Source: an uncultured Candidatus Saccharibacteria bacterium
GTDB taxonomy: Bacteria; Patescibacteriota; Minisyncoccia; Phycocordibacterales; UBA9973
DNA length: 27,638 bases
Direction of reading: 5' to 3'
Assembly (NCBI GenBank): GCA_964634365.1
Contig: CAZWJU010000005.1
Location: 1-27,638, forward strand
Below, piece by piece: positions 1,398 to 20,163 of the stretch (position 1 is its first letter; each line of letters starts with the position of its first letter). A program made the position numbers and the translations under genes. The notes under the pieces were generated by a model that saw only the letters and a list, made by a program, of their open reading frames with translations, was not told where the DNA came from and did no database searches.

Positions 1398-3716
1398 ATG
1401 ACAAAAAAAATCACCCTCAGTAAACAGGATCTTGCACAGATCAAAGAGATTCGTAACCGCGAGTTTAATATGATACCTTTTGATTTGAATAAGATTATTG
1501 AAGCTATCAATAAAGCTTTTGTTTCAACTAATGAGGGTGAGCACAAAGACGCAGAATACGTTGCTAAAAAGGTCTTCAAAGAACTCTTGGCTATTAAAAA
1601 AGAAGCTAAAGACAAGAAATTTGCTCCTACAGTAGAGCTTATACAGGATTTGGTAGAGACAGAACTCATTCGTGAAAAATACGTTCATACAGCAAAAGCT
1701 TATATTCTATATAGAAACAAGCGTGCAGAACTCCGCCGAGAAGTCGGTCCAGTTCCGGAAAAGGTAAAGAAATTGGCTGAAGAGAGTAAGGCTTATTTCC
1801 GCAATCCTCTAGCAGAACTTGTGTACTACAGAACATACGCAAAGTGGATAGAGGGAGAGGGTCGTCGCGAGACTTGGATTGAGACTATCGATCGTTATAT
1901 GGATTTTATGCGTGAGAACTTGGGAGATAAACTAAAAAGCGCAGAATACGCAGAAGTTCGCGAAGCAATCCTAAAACAAGAAGCTATGCCTTCAATGCGC
2001 TTGATTCAATTCGCTGGCGCACCAGCTCGCAAGACAAACGTTTGCGCATACAACTGTTCATTTATTGCACCATCTACATTTCAAGATTTTGGAGAGATAG
2101 TTTACATATCAATGTGTGGAACAGGTGTAGGATATACCGTTGAATCAAAAAATATTCAAGCTCTTCCTCAGATTAAACTTCAGAGTGGCAAAAAACTTCC
2201 AACTTTTATAGTTCCAGACTCAAAAGAGGGTTGGGCAGATGCATTGGTACACGGTATGAAAACTTGGTTTGATGGCAACGACGTAGAATTTGATTTCTCT
2301 CTACTACGTCCAGCAGGTGCTCGTCTAAAGACTATGGGTGGCAAATCTTCAGGTCCTCAACCACTAATAGAACTTTTGCAATTTACTAGAGAGCGTATTT
2401 TACGTCGACAAGGTCGTCATCTTCGCAACATAGATGCACACGATATAATTTGTAAAATAGGAGAGTGTGTAGTTGCTGGAGGTGTACGCCGAAGTGCTCT
2501 TATATCTCTTTCAGATTTGGATGATGAAGACATACGTGATGCTAAAAAAGGTCAGTTCTATCTAACAGAAGGCCAGAGATCTCTTGCAAACAACTCAGCA
2601 GTTTACGAGAACAAGCCATCAGCTGTTGAATTTATGGATGAATGGGTAGCTTTGATGAAGTCAGGGTCTGGAGAGCGAGGTATTTTCAATCGCGGTTCAC
2701 TACACGCGACTCTTCCAGAACGCCGAATCAAACTTTGGCAGAAAGAATACAAAGGATATTTCTCACCGGACGGCCGAGTAGTTGGTCCTATCGGAACAAA
2801 TCCTTGTGGAGAAATTATTTTGCAGTCAAAGCAGTTCTGCAATCTTTCTGAGGTTGTAGCACGTGCAGACGATTCCGAAGAAACTTTGATGCGAAAAATT
2901 CGCGTAGCAACAATCCTTGGTACATATCAGTCATCACTTACAAAATTCGGCTATCTATCAAAAGAGTGGCAAGACAATTGTAGAAAGGAGTGTTTGCTTG
3001 GTGTTTCTATCACAGGACAATGGGATTGCGGTCTTGCACGCGATGGAAAAATGTTAGAGAAACTCAAGAAAGAATCTATCCGCATCAACAAGATTTTTGC
3101 AAAACGTTTCGGAGTAAATGAATCCACATGTATTACTTGTGTTAAACCATCCGGAACAGTTTCTCAAACAGTTGATTGTTCTAGTGGTATGCACCCTCGT
3201 CATGCTCCTTACTATATCCGTCGAGTTCGAATATCAGCAACAGATGCACTTTTCAAAATGCTGAAAGACCAAGGTGTACCTTACTTTCCAGAAGTAGGTC
3301 AGTCAGTAGATACAGCAACTACATATGTTCTAGAATTCCCAGTAGCTGCTCCAAAAGGCGCAATATGTAAAGATGATATTTCTGCAATAGCTCAACTTGA
3401 ACACTGGAAGACTGTGAAAGTAAATTACACAGAACACAATCCTTCAGTAACTGTATCAGTAGGAGATGATGAATGGATCGAAGTTGCACACTGGTTGTAT
3501 CAAAACTGGGAAATTGTAGGAGGCTTGTCATTCCTTCCTCGATCAAACCATGTTTACCAGCTTGCTCCATATGAAGAGATCACAAAAGAGCAATACGAGA
3601 AACTAAAGCCAACAGTAGCAAACATTGATTTCTCAAAGATTGTAACTTATGAGATTCAAGACGAGACTGAAGTAAAGAAAGAACTTGCGTGTGTATCTGG
3701 AGTTTGTGAAATCTAG
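1398..3716 (+). CDS. nrdJ: Class II adenosylcobalamin-dependent ribonucleotide reductase with N-terminal ATP-cone
   Basis: Catalytic-site motif TNPCGEI. ATP-cone-like N-terminus (MIPFDLNKIIEAINKAF...). C-terminal Cys pair (CVSGVCEI). 773 aa from the ATG at 1398; the ORF-track start at 1344 probably over-extends. Confidence 0.85.
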   Translation: MTKKITLSKQDLAQIKEIRNREFNMIPFDLNKIIEAINKAFVSTNEGEHKDAEYVAKKVFKELLAIKKEAKDKKFAPTVELIQDLVETELIREKYVHTAKAYILYRNKRAELRREVGPVPEKVKKLAEESKAYFRNPLAELVYYRTYAKWIEGEGRRETWIETIDRYMDFMRENLGDKLKSAEYAEVREAILKQEAMPSMRLIQFAGAPARKTNVCAYNCSFIAPSTFQDFGEIVYISMCGTGVGYTVESKNIQALPQIKLQSGKKLPTFIVPDSKEGWADALVHGMKTWFDGNDVEFDFSLLRPAGARLKTMGGKSSGPQPLIELLQFTRERILRRQGRHLRNIDAHDIICKIGECVVAGGVRRSALISLSDLDDEDIRDAKKGQFYLTEGQRSLANNSAVYENKPSAVEFMDEWVALMKSGSGERGIFNRGSLHATLPERRIKLWQKEYKGYFSPDGRVVGPIGTNPCGEIILQSKQFCNLSEVVARADDSEETLMRKIRVATILGTYQSSLTKFGYLSKEWQDNCRKECLLGVSITGQWDCGLARDGKMLEKLKKESIRINKIFAKRFGVNESTCITCVKPSGTVSQTVDCSSGMHPRHAPYYIRRVRISATDALFKMLKDQGVPYFPEVGQSVDTATTYVLEFPVAAPKGAICKDDISAIAQLEHWKTVKVNYTEHNPSVTVSVGDDEWIEVAHWLYQNWEIVGGLSFLPRSNHVYQLAPYEEITKEQYEKLKPTVANIDFSKIVTYEIQDETEVKKELACVSGVCEI

Positions 3717-3730
3717 ATTTAGATAAAAAG

Positions 3731-3757
3731 AAAAACCACTCAGTTGAGTGGTTTTTT
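3731..3757. terminator. Bidirectional intrinsic terminator (accactcagttgagtggt flanked by A/T runs)
   Basis: Perfect hairpin with A5 upstream and T6 downstream, between nrdJ (+) and a minus-strand ORF. Confidence 0.7.
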
Positions 3758-3762
3758 AGTAT

Positions 3763-4095
3763 CTACAGTATCCAGGCTGGTTCTCCTATACCTTTTTCTT
3801 TTGCGATTATGAGAATTTGTTCATGGTAATCATGCTCGCGATACCTTTCTTTTATAAAGTTGTATATTTTGGTCCAGGCTTCGCGCTTACCAATCGCAAT
3901 GTCTTTTATAATTTGTTTTGTTTCCCACACCCAGTCTTCTTGGTCAGATTCTTTTTCTCCGACTGGATAATCTTCCATTGCTTTATAGAAACGAACCCTG
4001 GTTTCTTCATTGCAATTTTCCATATATGCAATTAGTGCGTCCACGAATTCTTGCCATACAGCAGTTAATTTAGAAGTTTTACGCTCTGTAGTCAT
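3763..4095 (-). CDS. Hypothetical protein (110 aa)
   Basis: Clean ORF in a gene-sized gap. No recognisable motif. Confidence 0.5.
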   Translation of the reverse strand: MTTERKTSKLTAVWQEFVDALIAYMENCNEETRVRFYKAMEDYPVGEKESDQEDWVWETKQIIKDIAIGKREAWTKIYNFIKERYREHDYHEQILIIAKEKGIGEPAWIL

Positions 4096-4164
4096 ATTAA
4101 ATTTTTCTTTATATTGTCATGTAAAGTAGTTATTGTCAAATGTAATTAATTGATATATAATGCT

Positions 4165-5106
4165 TTCGTTGTACTAGACAGTCGCCCCGTGGGATAATTG
4201 AATATTATGTATTACGTATATGTTTTGAAAAGCCCCAAGCAGTTTTATATTGGATCAACGAATGACTTAAGAAGAAGGTTTATTGAGCATCAGACAAATA
4301 AGTCTATCGCTACAAAAAATCGTGGTCCATGGAAACTTGTTTATTATGAAGCATCTGAATCTAAGTCTGATGCTTTACACAGAGAAATTTATCTTAAAAC
4401 TGCTTGGGGTAAGCGATATATTAAACAACGTATAAAAAATAGTATTTAGCTATCCCACGGGGAGGAAAGTCCGAACACACATATGTGTAGAAATGAGTTC
4501 TTTTTGTTTAGGAAATCAGAGGAAAAACAATAGTTTTGGTGGTTTGGATATTGACACCTTTTATTGTTTCAAGCATGAGATGGAGGGTTTTAGGCTTCTT
4601 GGAAGCAGAAGACCTTGTACAGAACGCTCCGTTGTTGATTGTTTGAGACTTTGAAAATTCAGCTAGTTCTAGGTATTTTTACCGGGCAAAGCTGACTTGA
4701 AAAAAGCCCAGTACTCTGGTTTCCTTCCTTTTTCTTTTTGAAAAAGGATTCATTTCTACACATATAAAACGGTAGTGGGTAATACCCATCCATAGCAATA
4801 TGCGAGGTGCGAGCAGAAACGCCAATGTCGAAAGACTAGGGCTCCGCAAGGAGTTGTCGTATGGAAACATGCGGATGAAACGGCTAAATCCTTACTTGTG
4901 TGCAAGACCGTGCCTGGGCAGATTATAGGTTGAAGGGAAAAGGGAATAGTAGAATGCATTTTGCATTTAACTATAACCTCTAACCTATTCCCTATAACCT
5001 GCTCAGGAGAGTCGCTTGAGGGTAGTGGTAACACTACTCCTAGATAAATGATTGTCGTTCCGACCTTGCGTCGGGATACAGAATTCGGCTTATAGGTACA
5101 ACGCAA
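4165..5106 (+). ncRNA. rnpB: RNase P RNA (bacterial type A core), ~940 nt with two large insertions
   Basis: 5' agacagtcgcc and P4 5' strand ggaggaaagtccg. cggtagtgggtaatacccatcc (cf. E. coli GGGCAGGGUGCCAGGUAACGCCUGGG). ggtgcgagcagaaacgcc (cf. GUGCAACAGAGAGCAAACCGCC). ggttgaagggaaaaggg (cf. GGUAAGGGUGAAAGGGUG). 3' cctagataaatgattgtcg..acagaattcggcttatagg (cf. CCUAGAUGAAUGACUGUCC..ACAGAACCCGGCUUAUCGG). P1 pairing ttgtac(4167-4172)/gtacaa(5098-5103). Terminator immediately downstream. Confidence 0.85.
4207..4449 (+). CDS. Small GIY-YIG nuclease-superfamily protein (YhbQ/UPF0213-like, 80 aa), nested in the P3 loop of rnpB
   Basis: YYVYVLKS..QFYIGSTNDLRRRFIEHQ..RGPWKLVYYEASESKSDALHREIYLKT fits the GIY-YIG/YhbQ pattern. 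The ORF lies entirely inside the loop closed by the perfect 10-bp stem ccccgtggga(4185-4194)/tcccacgggg(4453-4462). Confidence 0.75.
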   Translation: MYYVYVLKSPKQFYIGSTNDLRRRFIEHQTNKSIATKNRGPWKLVYYEASESKSDALHREIYLKTAWGKRYIKQRIKNSI

Positions 5107-5112
5107 AATATG

Positions 5113-5142
5113 AAAAAGTCTCGCGAAAGCGAGACTTTTTCT
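5113..5142 (+). terminator. Intrinsic terminator after rnpB (agtctcgcgaaagcgagact + T5)
   Basis: Perfect 8-bp GC-containing stem with GAAA loop and T-run. Confidence 0.8.
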
Positions 5143-5156
5143 GTTATAATTTCTTT

Positions 5157-6527
5157 ATGTCAAAAAATAATTCTCCATGGATTCATCAGCTTGCTCGTAC
5201 AAGACCTATTTCGAAAGGCGAAATTCCAGAAAAGACCGATGTTGTTATTGTAGGAGGAGGTATAGCTGGTATATCAACAGCTTATGAAGTTTTGAAAAAT
5301 ACCAGTCTAAAGGTTGTTCTACTAGAAGCCACAAAAGTAGCGCATGGAGCTACTGGACACAACGCAGGTCAAGTAACTAGTTATTTTGAAAATCCATTTC
5401 AAGATTTTGTAAATAAATTTGGATTGGAACAGTCTGCCGATGCAGTAAGAGCTATAGAATACGATTCTAGGATGATATTGAGTGAAATCATGCGGGACGC
5501 TAACATGAAAACACCTCTTTCAGAGTTTGAAGGTTACGATGGCCTAAAAGACAAGGATTCCATCCTGATTTATCTGGAAGATCTCAGGTTGAAGTCTGAG
5601 GCAGGTTTGTCTATTCGTAAAATGTATATATCAGAAGATTGGTGTCATGGTATACACATACCTTCTCAATACAAAGCTTTTTATACAAAGATAGGGCACA
5701 GCGATGTCATGTCGTTGCTCGAGACTGTCGACACCGATTATGTAGCCGCCCTGCCTTTTTTGTCAGGTTGTATGAACAGCGCGCTTTTTACAGAGGAGTT
5801 AGGAGTTTTTATGTTAAATAATTTCAAAGACCGTTTTGTTTTAGTCGAGGAATCACCAGTTTCAAAGTGTGAACTTTATGAAAATTCTGTTCATATAAAA
5901 TGCAAAGATACTTCTATTGTTTCAGACAAGGTTATTTTGTGTACAAATGGATTTGAAAATATACAAATAGAAAATAAAAATGGGGCAGATATAGACACCA
6001 AATTTCACCACAGTGTTTCAGGGCTTATTGGCTATATGGCAGGCTTTACCGAGAATCCAGACAAGAAGCCTTCTGCTAGTATTTACACAAAATCCATAAG
6101 CATGAACGGTGGGCAATATTTTTACACAACCCGTAGACCCTATGAACTCAAAGACAACAAGGTAAATCTGATATCAATTGGAGGCCCAGAAGAGGTGATA
6201 GAAGACACAAGAAAATATGATAGAAATATGCACATTCCTTCTACTGCTATAAGTTCTATTTTTAGCTTTATTGAGAAAACTTATAATACGAAAAATAAAA
6301 ATGATACTTTTGAATTTATTTGGCATGGGCTTATGGGCTATACACCGAACGGTGTTAGGTTGATTGGTAAAGAGCCTTGCAATCCTGTACTTTTGTACAA
6401 CTTGGGTTGTAACGGAGTGGGGATACTACCTTCTATATACGGTGCTAGAAGAATTTCAAAAATACTTTCAAACGAAGAGCTCAAGCCTTCGATATTTGAC
6501 CCTAGGGATCAAACCTGCCCCATTTAA
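5157..6527 (+). CDS. FAD-dependent oxidoreductase (DAO/DadA-like)
   Basis: Rossmann dinucleotide-binding motif DVVIVGGGIAGISTAYEV near the N-terminus. The start is set at ATG 5157 because the ORF-track start (5052) overlaps the rnpB 3' end and its terminator. Confidence 0.7.
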   Translation: MSKNNSPWIHQLARTRPISKGEIPEKTDVVIVGGGIAGISTAYEVLKNTSLKVVLLEATKVAHGATGHNAGQVTSYFENPFQDFVNKFGLEQSADAVRAIEYDSRMILSEIMRDANMKTPLSEFEGYDGLKDKDSILIYLEDLRLKSEAGLSIRKMYISEDWCHGIHIPSQYKAFYTKIGHSDVMSLLETVDTDYVAALPFLSGCMNSALFTEELGVFMLNNFKDRFVLVEESPVSKCELYENSVHIKCKDTSIVSDKVILCTNGFENIQIENKNGADIDTKFHHSVSGLIGYMAGFTENPDKKPSASIYTKSISMNGGQYFYTTRRPYELKDNKVNLISIGGPEEVIEDTRKYDRNMHIPSTAISSIFSFIEKTYNTKNKNDTFEFIWHGLMGYTPNGVRLIGKEPCNPVLLYNLGCNGVGILPSIYGARRISKILSNEELKPSIFDPRDQTCPI

Positions 6528-19042: not shown

Positions 19043-19660
19043 ATTTTTTACTTTTTGTTTTTTCCATTGGGTCATCGCGCTGGTCTTTTTTTCTAAATCT
19101 GAGAGTGGGCGTAGTTTGTAGATTTGTTTTTTAGAAAGTATTTTTGTATGAGGGCTCTCGTCGAGTGCAATAGCTAGGTCCCATAAATCTTCTTCTTCTA
19201 CTACCCAAGACGGAGTGCTTTTCGATAAGTCGAAAGGTTTTGAATAGTCCCGTAGTGTTTTCACTCCATCTTTGACAGTTGCGTATTCGTGGAAATACGA
19301 CATTACTAGTTCGCGTACAGATTTGTATACAGGATCTCGAAAACGCAATACTGGATAGTTGGTCTTGCTTATAGCGCCCCAGAAACCGTCTATTTTAAAA
19401 AGTGCGACTACATGATCGAAATCTTTTTTATTGGCACGAAGGTCGAGTATTAGTGGCTTTTGTCCGTGATAGGCGAGAGCGAGCGCAGCAAAAAGAGCGC
19501 CTTCTATACAGTGAGCTTTTTTATATTTCATAACTTGCCGTGGGGACAGAAGTGTCTCGTCAAAATTTTGCGGAATTGTGTCGAGCCAGTTTTGGATTTT
19601 ATACGGATTGTTTAATTTTTTCAGCAGAGCAATTTCTGTTTTGTTTAAATCTTTGAACAT
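19022..19660 (-). CDS. Papain-fold cysteine peptidase-like protein (peptidase C39-like/transglutaminase-like Cys-His signature)
   Basis: KAHCIEGALFAALALAYHG resembles the C39 active-site Cys context (CG.A.LAM...YG). A downstream DFDHVVALFK supplies a His candidate. Confidence 0.4.
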   Translation of the reverse strand: MFKDLNKTEIALLKKLNNPYKIQNWLDTIPQNFDETLLSPRQVMKYKKAHCIEGALFAALALAYHGQKPLILDLRANKKDFDHVVALFKIDGFWGAISKTNYPVLRFRDPVYKSVRELVMSYFHEYATVKDGVKTLRDYSKPFDLSKSTPSWVVEEEDLWDLAIALDESPHTKILSKKQIYKLRPLSDLEKKTSAMTQWKKQKVKNKKTGGV

Positions 19661-19698
19661 AAGCTAGATTATAGCAATTTTTATGCTATTATTTCACA

Positions 19699-20163
19699 AT
19701 GCAGAAAACAAAGAAAAAAAATAAAGATAAAAGTGCAAAGCATGTAATCCCTCGCACAAAGGTCGGAAGATCTTCACACAGCGGTTTCGGAATATTTGCA
19801 ATTGATCCGATAAAAAAAGGTGACTTTATAATAGAGTACATAGGCAAGATTTGTACCAACAAAGAAATTGAAGATAACTTAGGTATGTATCTTTTTGAGC
19901 TAAACAATAAGTTCACAATCGACGGTACTACTCGTAAAAATAAAGCTAGATATGTGAATCATTCGTGTCGTCCAAATGCTGAGAGTGATGTGAAAGGTTT
20001 GCGAGTTTTTATATCTGCTATAAAAGACATTGCACCAGGTGAAGAAGTTACATATGACTATGGAAAAGAATTCTTCAATGAATTTATAAAACCAAAAGGT
20101 TGTAAGTGTGGTTTCTGTGATGGAAAAGGCAAGAAACTTCCTCTTAAAAAGAAGAAAAAATAA
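19699..20163 (+). CDS. SET-domain protein lysine methyltransferase (bacterial, 154 aa) with Lys-rich N- and C-termini
   Basis: GFGIFAIDPIKKGDFIIEYIGK (SET-N). RYVNHSCRPN (NHSC.PN). GEEVTYDYG (SET-C). Post-SET-like CKCGFCDG. Confidence 0.8.
   Translation: MQKTKKKNKDKSAKHVIPRTKVGRSSHSGFGIFAIDPIKKGDFIIEYIGKICTNKEIEDNLGMYLFELNNKFTIDGTTRKNKARYVNHSCRPNAESDVKGLRVFISAIKDIAPGEEVTYDYGKEFFNEFIKPKGCKCGFCDGKGKKLPLKKKKK

Follow-up and report, generated by a model that had tools for sequence, protein, structure and literature searches.

A GIY-YIG protein gene within helix P3 of the RNase P RNA gene of a Paceibacteria bacterium, a putative selfish hairpin cassette

The rnpB transcription unit

The stretch of DNA analyzed here, referred to as the window, comprises 27,638 nt of contig CAZWJU010000005.1 (assembly GCA_964634365.1, deposited as an uncultured Candidatus Saccharibacteria bacterium), and its point of interest is an RNase P RNA gene (rnpB) in which the peripheral helix P3 carries an open reading frame (ORF) for a small GIY-YIG protein. 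Positions 4133–5146 form one compact transcription unit made up of a promoter, the RNase P RNA gene and a terminator, while the remainder of the window is ordinary chromosome, with genes for SecA, BacA, RsmE, pyruvate kinase and others. The features of the unit are given below.

4133–4161, + strand: rnpB promoter (TTGTCA, 17 nt spacer, TATAAT), matching 11 of 12 consensus positions and lying 6–7 nt upstream of P1
4166–5106, + strand: rnpB (type A RNase P RNA) with both large insertions; ends placed by the pairing of P1
4167–4174, + strand: 5' strand of P1, pairing with 5096–5103; read from the sequence
4177–4183, + strand: 5' strand of P2, pairing with 5050–5056; read from the sequence
4185–4462, + strand: P3 hairpin cassette, 278 nt, with an outer helix (4185–4196/4451–4462 and 4198–4208/4439–4449) and an inner 15-bp helix (4233–4247/4395–4409)
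4207–4449, + strand: ORF for a GIY-YIG nuclease of the UPF0213/YhbQ type, 80 aa (PF01541)
4461–4472, + strand: 5' strand of P4, GGAGGAAAGUCC; read directly
4481–4765, + strand: second insertion, at the P5.1 position (between P5 and P7), with stem 4481–4497/4749–4765 and about 225 extra nt (roughly 4498–4722)
4913–5007, + strand: extended P12 hairpin, a 46-nt inverted repeat that is 72% complementary; an insertion in the P12 region by RF00010 alignment
5050–5103, + strand: 3' block with the P2 3' strand (5050–5056), a small J2/4 hairpin, the P4 3' strand and the P1 3' strand (5096–5103); RF00010 alignment with high posterior probability
5078–5092, + strand: 3' strand of P4, ACAGAAUUCGGCUUA; read directly, and aligned to RF00010 with high posterior probability
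5112–5146, + strand: intrinsic terminator, a 13-bp stem with a GAAA loop (5112–5141) and a T-rich tail; sequence reading

Helix pairing and covariance-model alignment together show positions 4166–5106 to be one type A RNase P RNA gene with its structure intact, from a Paceibacteria bacterium, an ultra-small member of the Candidate Phyla Radiation (CPR). Both strands of the P4 pseudoknot are present (GGAGGAAAGUCC and ACAGAAnnCGGCUUA, at 4461–4472 and 5078–5092), the long-range P1 and P2 pairings close the molecule, and a P3 hairpin lies between P2 and P4, its stem (4185–4196/4451–4462) abutting P4. An initial annotation, made from the letters of the window alone, had recognized this rnpB core, and it is borne out both by the direct reading of P1, P2 and the two P4 strands and by the Rfam model RF00010, which in E-value mode matches 4706–5108 (61.9 bits, E = 3e-18). 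At the gathering threshold (100 bits for this model) RF00010 was missed, and the sole Rfam match in the window was the 3' end of a 16S rRNA. In the alignment, P7–P11, P15–P18 and the 3' regions are placed with high posterior probability, and the 5' third falls on the wrong sequence because the two inserts, about 540 nt together, push the real 5' third upstream. The ORF-bearing rnpB genes as a group score 48–90 bits against RF00010, compared with 104–114 bits for their ORF-less relatives.

The sub-threshold score, and the spurious 5' end at 4706 in the covariance-model alignment, would suit a reading in which the ORF is not nested at all, being an independent gene next to a normal rnpB, the product of a chimeric assembly, or part of a dead rnpB pseudogene. 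Such a reading is very hard to sustain. The 5' strands of P1 and P2 lie upstream of the ORF and covary with 3' partners 0.3–0.9 kb downstream, being different yet complementary in eight loci (P2 variants include GACAGUC/GAUUGUC, GGCAGUC/GACUGUC, GAUAGGU/ACCUAUC and GGCGACC/GGUCGUC), and so the ORF is not merely adjacent to rnpB. A promoter precedes P1 and a terminator follows it, and both P4 strands and the P15–P18 region are intact. Finally, positions 3143–4905 are reproduced at 100% identity in two independent assemblies and the architecture recurs in many other genomes (at least 12), which means that the locus is not an assembly artefact.

Helix P3 as a hairpin cassette

The pairing and coding content of the region between P2 and P4 show helix P3 to be a 278-nt self-complementary cassette that encodes a predicted 80-aa nuclease of the UPF0213/YhbQ-type GIY-YIG family. 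In the initial annotation a perfect 10-bp stem was said to enclose the ORF; a perfect stem does so, but it is 12 bp long and, after one mismatch, runs on for another 11 pairs to give a 24-bp helix. Both the AUG start codon (4207) and the UAG stop codon (4447) are inside this helix, and the perfect inner 15-bp helix pairs two stretches of coding sequence. The ORF takes up 243 of the 254 nt of the loop, leaving about 11 nt non-coding, and the cassette is predicted to fold with a minimum free energy (MFE) of -93 kcal/mol (z = -9.0 against shuffled sequences).

Structure statistics were taken from an alignment of 12 cassettes, with 500 shuffles and slid pairing partners as controls. Over the consensus structure 95.3% of cells pair, double (compensatory) changes occur in 12 pairs compared with 7.1 in the shuffles (1/500), and the covariation score is 0.219, compared with 0.121 in the shuffles (0/500) and 0.05–0.08 with slid partners. 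Compensatory changes are found in 6/21 pairs of the outer helix, and the strongest covariation is that of the nucleotides immediately 5' of the AUG with the last two codons; as the residues specified by these codons vary freely (I/A/E/L/T), it is the pairing that is kept. G·U pairs are conserved in the cassette helix at columns 19/274 and 21/272 and, together with the compensatory changes, indicate that the helix is selected as sense-strand RNA and not merely as identical DNA repeats. These pairs are more informative on this point than the CpG of the 12-nt motif at the base of the cassette (described below), where G·U and A·C mismatches both occur and leave RNA- and DNA-level selection ambiguous.

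Codon comparison further shows the inner helix (14–15 bp) to be frozen even at synonymous sites. The inner-helix codons for K11 (AAG), Q12 (CAG), F13 (TTT), T65 (ACT) and A66 (GCT) are invariant in 13 sequences, and the fraction of major codons is 0.96 for inner-helix codons, compared with 0.60 for the remaining conserved degenerate codons (p < 5e-5 by permutation).

The GIY-YIG protein

The ORF of 80 codons plus stop matches Pfam PF01541 with 53.8 bits (cut-off 22.6; E = 2.4e-14), in agreement with the initial description of a YhbQ/UPF0213-type GIY-YIG gene filling the loop. The nearest solved structure is that of the UPF0213 protein BH0048 (1ZG2, E = 7e-6). More than 359 relatives of the cassette protein were retrieved, mostly of exactly 80 aa, and the top relatives are 67–89% identical, nearly all exactly 80 aa long, and all from Patescibacteria. 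The protein is a bare catalytic domain of 80 aa without a DNA-binding module. Residues Y5, Y14, R24, H28 and E48 vary little or not at all among 13 cassette proteins, with only L019 having H at position 2 (related loci are denoted by L numbers), and we take them to correspond to the catalytic Tyr, Tyr, Arg, His and Glu of I-TevI. The ratio of non-synonymous to synonymous substitution (dN/dS) is 0.07–0.19, with a median of 0.11, and synonymous divergence (pS, 0.55–0.87) is near saturation; these values show the protein to be under strong purifying selection.

GIY-YIG genes are typical of group I introns, and TIGR01453, 'group I intron endonuclease', matches the ORF weakly and below its threshold (22.9 bits, cut-off 56); both points would fit a classical self-splicing group I or group II intron with a homing endonuclease gene. 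That explanation has next to no probability in our view. The ORF fills nearly the whole loop, its flanks form a plain helix, and the GIY-YIG-bearing insertions of CPR rRNA genes are likewise not introns (PMC11270868). Between 4100 and 5200 no intron covariance model, group I or group II, gave a match even at E ≤ 10. With no recognizable ribozyme core flanking the ORF, a group I/II intron is effectively refuted, as had been anticipated when the locus was first annotated.

The leader of the ORF (4196–4203) holds AAUUGAAU, 3 nt 5' of the AUG, which is a perfect 8-nt complement of AUUCAAUU in the 16S rRNA tail (217–224). The other genes of the window do not have this 8-nt complementarity, and because it is not common to them it is probably coincidental.

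Nesting in related rnpB genes

The nested gene was at first described for this locus alone. The nesting itself stands, but it is not unique to this genome, since the same arrangement recurs in 12 further distinct Paceibacteria genomes (L001/L010, L002–4, L009, L011, L012, L013, L014, L017, L018, L019 and L141/L182). RF00010 matches lie downstream of the ORF in the nested loci, and in the window and all rnpB-nested homologues the core of the 5' strand of P4, AGGAAAGTC, begins 14 nt after the stop codon. Every nested copy reads in the same direction as its host RNA, and nothing convincing was found by way of a promoter belonging to the cassette itself; within the ORF of the window, a promoter scan gave only weak consensus matches, no more than in shuffled sequence.

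The placement of the stem at P3 can be checked in L121, an ORF-less rnpB that scores 114 bits and so lies above the RF00010 gathering score. Here, the covariance model sets P3 on CCACACCAGAU...AUCUCACGUGG, directly before GGAGGAAAGUCC; the 3' arm of this P3 is identical to that of L002 and sits where it does in the ORF-bearing genes, and its 5' arm is degenerate. The initial identification of the stem with P3 is therefore upheld as to position, but the stem is part of the cassette and not an ancestral P3.

Filled, empty and decayed sites

Relatives were also sampled without bias as to the ORF, by means of a conserved motif of the rnpB core, giving 120 metagenomic loci with 113 distinct core sequences. 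Of the 111 loci with a locatable P4, 107 lack the cassette motif, and such P3 hairpins as were read in these are short and unrelated in sequence. The comparison of related loci that the initial annotation had proposed thus yielded filled, empty and degenerate sites. For example, L002 (filled) and L172 (empty) are almost identical in promoter, P1 and P2 and lie 0.12 apart in the core. L017, which is filled, clusters with the empty L201, with L121, whose motif stem has a short loop, and with L191, a remnant in which P3 has kept the 5' leader and ATG of the cassette but lost the ORF. In L141/L182 the ORF is frameshifted, with a stop at codon 24, and all helices are intact. Filled, empty and degenerate alleles at one site of a conserved gene make up the pattern of a homing endonuclease gene. 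The filled rnpB genes are scattered through the tree of rnpB cores, a tree that is poorly resolved (264 columns). Cassettes lie at smaller distances from one another than cores do, and the two sets of distances correlate only weakly (Mantel r = 0.28, p = 0.13), which with a weak host tree is no more than suggestive.

P3 of L174 and P12 of L092/L094 hold independent cassettes that share the design but have unrelated stems, and whose proteins are only about 52% identical. The L174 cassette has a 25-bp helix that includes the AUG (z = -4.9), and that of L092/L094 a 22-bp helix that includes both AUG and UAA (z = -8.9 for L092). Outside rnpB, window-type cassettes with the same inverted repeat and inner helix are intergenic in L005–8, L016 and L020, and in L023 and L024 lie between the L10 leader RNA and rplJ-rplL. 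More distant family members adjoin tRNA or tmRNA genes, and 9/9 are both co-oriented with such a gene and within 150 nt of it. A scan of viral contigs gave distant GIY-YIG relatives only.

Some further observations concern these sites. Family genes lie 5–133 nt from a tRNA or tmRNA gene, on the same strand, in L035, L047, L051, L067, L045, L048, L066 and L054, and in L054 two family GIY-YIG genes are interleaved with tRNAs. At 3257–3840 of L005 (Lloydbacteria contigs), 3' of the free-standing cassette, there is a stretch of about 590 nt that is apparently non-coding and strongly self-complementary, and for which no Rfam match was found.

The inverted repeat and its ORF-less hairpins

A conserved 12-nt inverted repeat, CCCCGTGRGATA, brackets the cassette. 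It travels with the ORF, the P3 sequence being different in empty sites, and it also surrounds the cassettes found outside rnpB. In the window it occurs at P3 only. Related repeats of at least 10 bp, with the consensus ACCC[CT]GT[GT]A[GA]A[TA]A, were found on both sides of 33 of the 78 family genes, across many phyla, compared with 14 of 400 mismatched controls. There are GIY-YIG genes bracketed by the related repeat CCCCGTTAGATA / CCCTGTGAAATA in metagenome-assembled genomes (MAGs) labelled Bacteroidota, Planctomycetota, Deltaproteobacteria and Bdellovibrionales (L084 2438–2839, from a 3.2-Mb Prolixibacteraceae contig, and L028, L029, L032, L033, L041 and L062); if the binning is right, the unit of gene plus repeat is not confined to CPR bacteria.

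Hairpins with the same arms but without an ORF, their short loops often GNRA-capped, occur in other peripheral positions of related rnpB genes, namely in P12 of L009 and L002, at the P5.1 position of L012, L013 and L141, and in J2/4 of L172 and L013; L013 has two identical copies in one rnpB. Others lie beside GIY-YIG genes (L015, L016 and L022). In the unbiased metagenomic set the motif was present within rnpB only, with no copy in about 0.7 Mb of flanking sequence, and in all the DNA sampled (1.2 Mb) copies were found only in rnpB or beside a GIY-YIG gene. As a separate observation, a 39-nt motif hairpin at 2541–2579 of L022 lies in-frame in a GIY-YIG ORF, between QFY and TGST, adding 13 residues, and two more motif hairpins stand immediately upstream of the interrupted ORF. 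Judged by their sequence and position, the ORF-less hairpins fit either MITE-like derivatives of the cassette (MITE, miniature inverted-repeat transposable element) or a protein-binding RNA helix.

The first of these possibilities belongs to a model of a cut-and-paste element, a transposon with terminal inverted repeats (TIR) and the GIY-YIG protein as transposase, that would excise and insert at the DNA level and would spread neither by homing nor by gene conversion. Conserved terminal inverted repeats and ORF-less derivatives are both present, as in TIR and MITE elements, and the enrichment of repeats around family genes in many phyla, the identical duplicates at two positions of the L013 rnpB and the in-frame hairpin of L022 speak for it, as does the difference of the whole P3 between L002 and L172, which indicates that the stem travels with the ORF. 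We nevertheless consider such an element unlikely. No clear or consistent target-site duplication was found, the copies are not dispersed, the arms contain conserved G·U pairs and hence are not identical as DNA, and the precise replacement of P3 suits recombination via conserved flanks better than transposition. In addition, we know of no GIY-YIG transposase in prokaryotes.

The second possibility is part of a model of domestication, in which the GIY-YIG protein would be a lineage-specific RNase P cofactor or RNA-binding factor recognizing the CCCGUGAGAU/AUCUCACGGG helix, its gene would sit in P3 for co-expression and autoregulation, and the extra helices at P5.1, P12 and J2/4 would be further binding sites. 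Consistent with this, the motif helix with short GNRA-capped loops is present in other peripheral helices of L009, L002, L012, L013 (four copies), L019 and L172, and in the unbiased set it is confined to rnpB. The motif sequence is also conserved while the protein diverges to about 50% identity, purifying selection on the protein is strong, and the helix is itself under selection as RNA. On the other hand, most related rnpB genes have neither ORF nor motif, the window has its motif at P3 only, cassettes also occupy unrelated sites, a frameshifted copy persists (L141/L182), and the hairpin within the L022 ORF is the behaviour of mobile DNA. To our knowledge, the characterized GIY-YIG domains are all DNA nucleases. 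Domestication accordingly seems to us improbable.

A putative homing-type cassette and the fate of its RNA

On the comparative evidence, the P3 insert is probably a selfish, homing-type hairpin cassette of stable-RNA transcription units. The initial annotation had offered three options for it, a P3 extension retained in the ribozyme, a loop that is excised, and a mobile or selfish insertion tolerated because P3 is peripheral; as to origin, the evidence favours the last. The cassette would be expressed from the rnpB promoter and would fold back on itself as a rod stacked coaxially on P3, which is peripheral and exposed to solvent, allowing the ribozyme core to fold normally. Its start codon could be reached only while the 3' arm is still to be transcribed, or once the helix is cut. 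Spread could take place by nuclease-stimulated gene conversion between rnpB alleles via the highly conserved P2 and P4 flanks, and loss by decay when the element is not spreading, as in the classical cycle of invasion, degeneration and loss.

By analogy with the intervening sequences (IVSs) of rRNA (PMC4990558), the 24-bp helix makes a textbook substrate for RNase III. The locus has the features of an IVS, that is, an insertion at a helix tip, inverted repeats that form a stem of at least 20 bp (here the 24-bp helix), and a patchy distribution among relatives. It is about an even question whether the helix would be cleaved by RNase III in the manner of an IVS, leaving a ribozyme in two pieces joined through P1, P2 and the base of P3. 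That the mature ribozyme keeps the rod is a serious possibility, falling a little short of even, and what remains is shared by other fates.

Several points weigh against a selfish, homing-type origin. The protein is a bare 80-aa domain without the DNA-binding domain of the characterized GIY-YIG homing endonucleases, and site-specific homing is thus putative. Synonymous sites between cassettes are near saturation, and nothing points to recent transfer between the genomes sampled. The patchiness would be accounted for equally well by an ancient insertion lost many times over as by repeated gains, and the rnpB tree is, as noted, poorly resolved, with a Mantel test that speaks for neither side. 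Lastly, the recurrence of the motif in other peripheral rnpB helices, and its restriction in the sample to rnpB or the neighbourhood of a GIY-YIG gene, could point to a function at the RNA level rather than to pure selfishness.

A broader proposal, which we put forward tentatively and which as a whole is rather less likely to hold than to fail, is that small UPF0213/YhbQ GIY-YIG genes and ACCCYGTKARATA inverted repeats constitute an unrecognized, phylum-spanning class of mobile 'hairpin cassettes' for stable-RNA units (rnpB P3 and P12, tRNA and tmRNA operons, and the rplJ leader), that their ORF-less derivatives remodel the peripheral helices of RNase P RNA, and that the RNase P RNA of carriers may be a natural two-piece ribozyme or a bifunctional mRNA-ribozyme in which P3 gates translation.

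Comparison with known systems

The closest precedent in design is the IVS in helix 45 of the Coxiella burnetii 23S rRNA, which contains an S23p ORF and is excised by RNase III (PMC4990558). Both are selfish or putatively selfish insertions of a few hundred nt at the helix tip of an essential stable RNA, with inverted repeats forming a long stem, a small ORF, a patchy occurrence in relatives and, presumably so for the cassette, no harm to the function of the host RNA. They differ in the host molecule (rRNA versus the RNase P ribozyme), in the ORF, which is decaying and untranslated in Coxiella but under strong purifying selection in the rnpB cassette, and in that RNase III excision, putative for the cassette, is proven for the IVS.

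Nearer in phylogeny and in protein are the GIY-YIG ORFs reported within insertions of CPR rRNA genes that are not introns (PMC11270868). They come from the same radiation, encode the same protein superfamily, are not group I or II introns and lie at stem-loop tips. As reported, they are sparse and limited to rRNA genes, whereas the rnpB cassette keeps to one conserved site in many genomes. Its hairpin design, its inverted repeat and its frozen inner helix are features that the paper on the rRNA insertions does not describe, and on these counts the two are set apart by description only.

The GIY-YIG homing endonucleases of group I introns (I-TevI type) and free-standing homing genes resemble the cassette in their GIY-YIG domain, in presence/absence polymorphism at a conserved site and in having degenerate copies, but the rnpB cassette has no ribozyme, specifies 80 aa only, has no DNA-binding domain, and its homing is putative. 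Members of the UPF0213/YhbQ family, such as BH0048 (1ZG2), are likewise small single-domain GIY-YIG proteins and include the closest solved relative; they are usually annotated as free-standing and of unknown function, whereas the window clade is nested in RNA helices and dual-coded. In REP/RAYT systems (repetitive extragenic palindromes and their associated transposases) and with MITE-type palindromes, a gene is flanked by cognate palindromes, and cyanobacterial rnpB has repeat expansions in P12. As in the case described here, short hairpin derivatives are tolerated in peripheral rnpB helices and even in-frame in ORFs; the enzyme class is a different one, however, and cassette copies are not dispersed genome-wide in the sampled DNA.

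A full-text literature search gave no report of an ORF nested in rnpB, of GIY-YIG-associated palindromes, or of YhbQ. What appears to be new here is the protein gene nested in an RNase P RNA, ORF-bearing IVSs and GIY-YIG insertions in rRNA having been known already. The arrangement provides a natural test of what the ribozyme tolerates at P3, and of whether bacterial RNase P can work with its RNA in two pieces or as a hybrid of mRNA and ribozyme. It extends the CPR habit of insertions in rRNA genes to a third essential RNA, and suggests a plausible biology, that of a selfish cassette of stable-RNA operons, for the widespread UPF0213/YhbQ family, whose function is unknown. There is also a practical side: with scores below the Rfam gathering score, these genes will escape annotation pipelines, so that many CPR genomes will be listed as lacking RNase P RNA and the ORF will be labelled an orphan 'excinuclease ABC subunit C' or 'putative endonuclease'.

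Other expansions of the RNase P RNA

A second gap in the rnpB core, marked at 4497–4749 in the initial annotation, is real and corresponds to the 4481–4765 hairpin at the P5.1 position (MFE -105 kcal/mol, z = -8.1 against shuffles). In L186 the same stem (CAUAUGUGUAGAAAUGA.../...UCAUUUCUACACAUAU) forms a hairpin of about 55 nt that lacks the inner 225 nt or so. Apart from this stem, the insertion has no similarity to any cassette or other locus; it has no recognizable ORF, and a 53-aa ORF within it has no Pfam match. Near the extended P12 hairpin, both of the independent short-read assemblies (L209 and L210) end at position 4905, shortly before its start, which could be due to population variation or to a break at the inverted repeat.

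Further expansions are seen in other rnpB genes of this group. In L002 the same hairpin of about 55 nt (GUCCAGCACUUAUUUUGU...AAAUAAGUGCUGGAU) is present twice in one rnpB, at 3326–3381 in the P9 region and at 3637–3692 in J2/4, and a structured insert of about 120 nt (...AUUUUGCCUGCCGCAGGCAGUUGCAAAAU...) is common to L012 and L019, although in different helices (J2/4 and the P5.1 position, respectively). Such duplicated and shared inserts indicate that peripheral expansion is common in this lineage.

Other features of the window

The 3' tail of the 16S rRNA (201–230) reads GGAAUAAUUCAAUUUG and is without the CCUCC anti-Shine-Dalgarno sequence; the same tail is present in L186 (9510–9545, - strand). 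A GGAGG-like motif was found upstream of 0/22 window genes. Following the 16S gene, positions 225–1343 contain neither a tRNA nor a 23S rRNA gene, but about 1.1 kb of overlapping ORFs on both strands without Pfam matches, and this stretch is followed by a gene for a class II ribonucleotide reductase. TATAAT-like boxes are located 7–10 nt upstream of the start codons at 5157 (+), 19660 (-) and 19699 (+), within 5140–5160 and 19660–19700, and their closeness to the start codons suggests that these genes may be transcribed as leaderless mRNAs.

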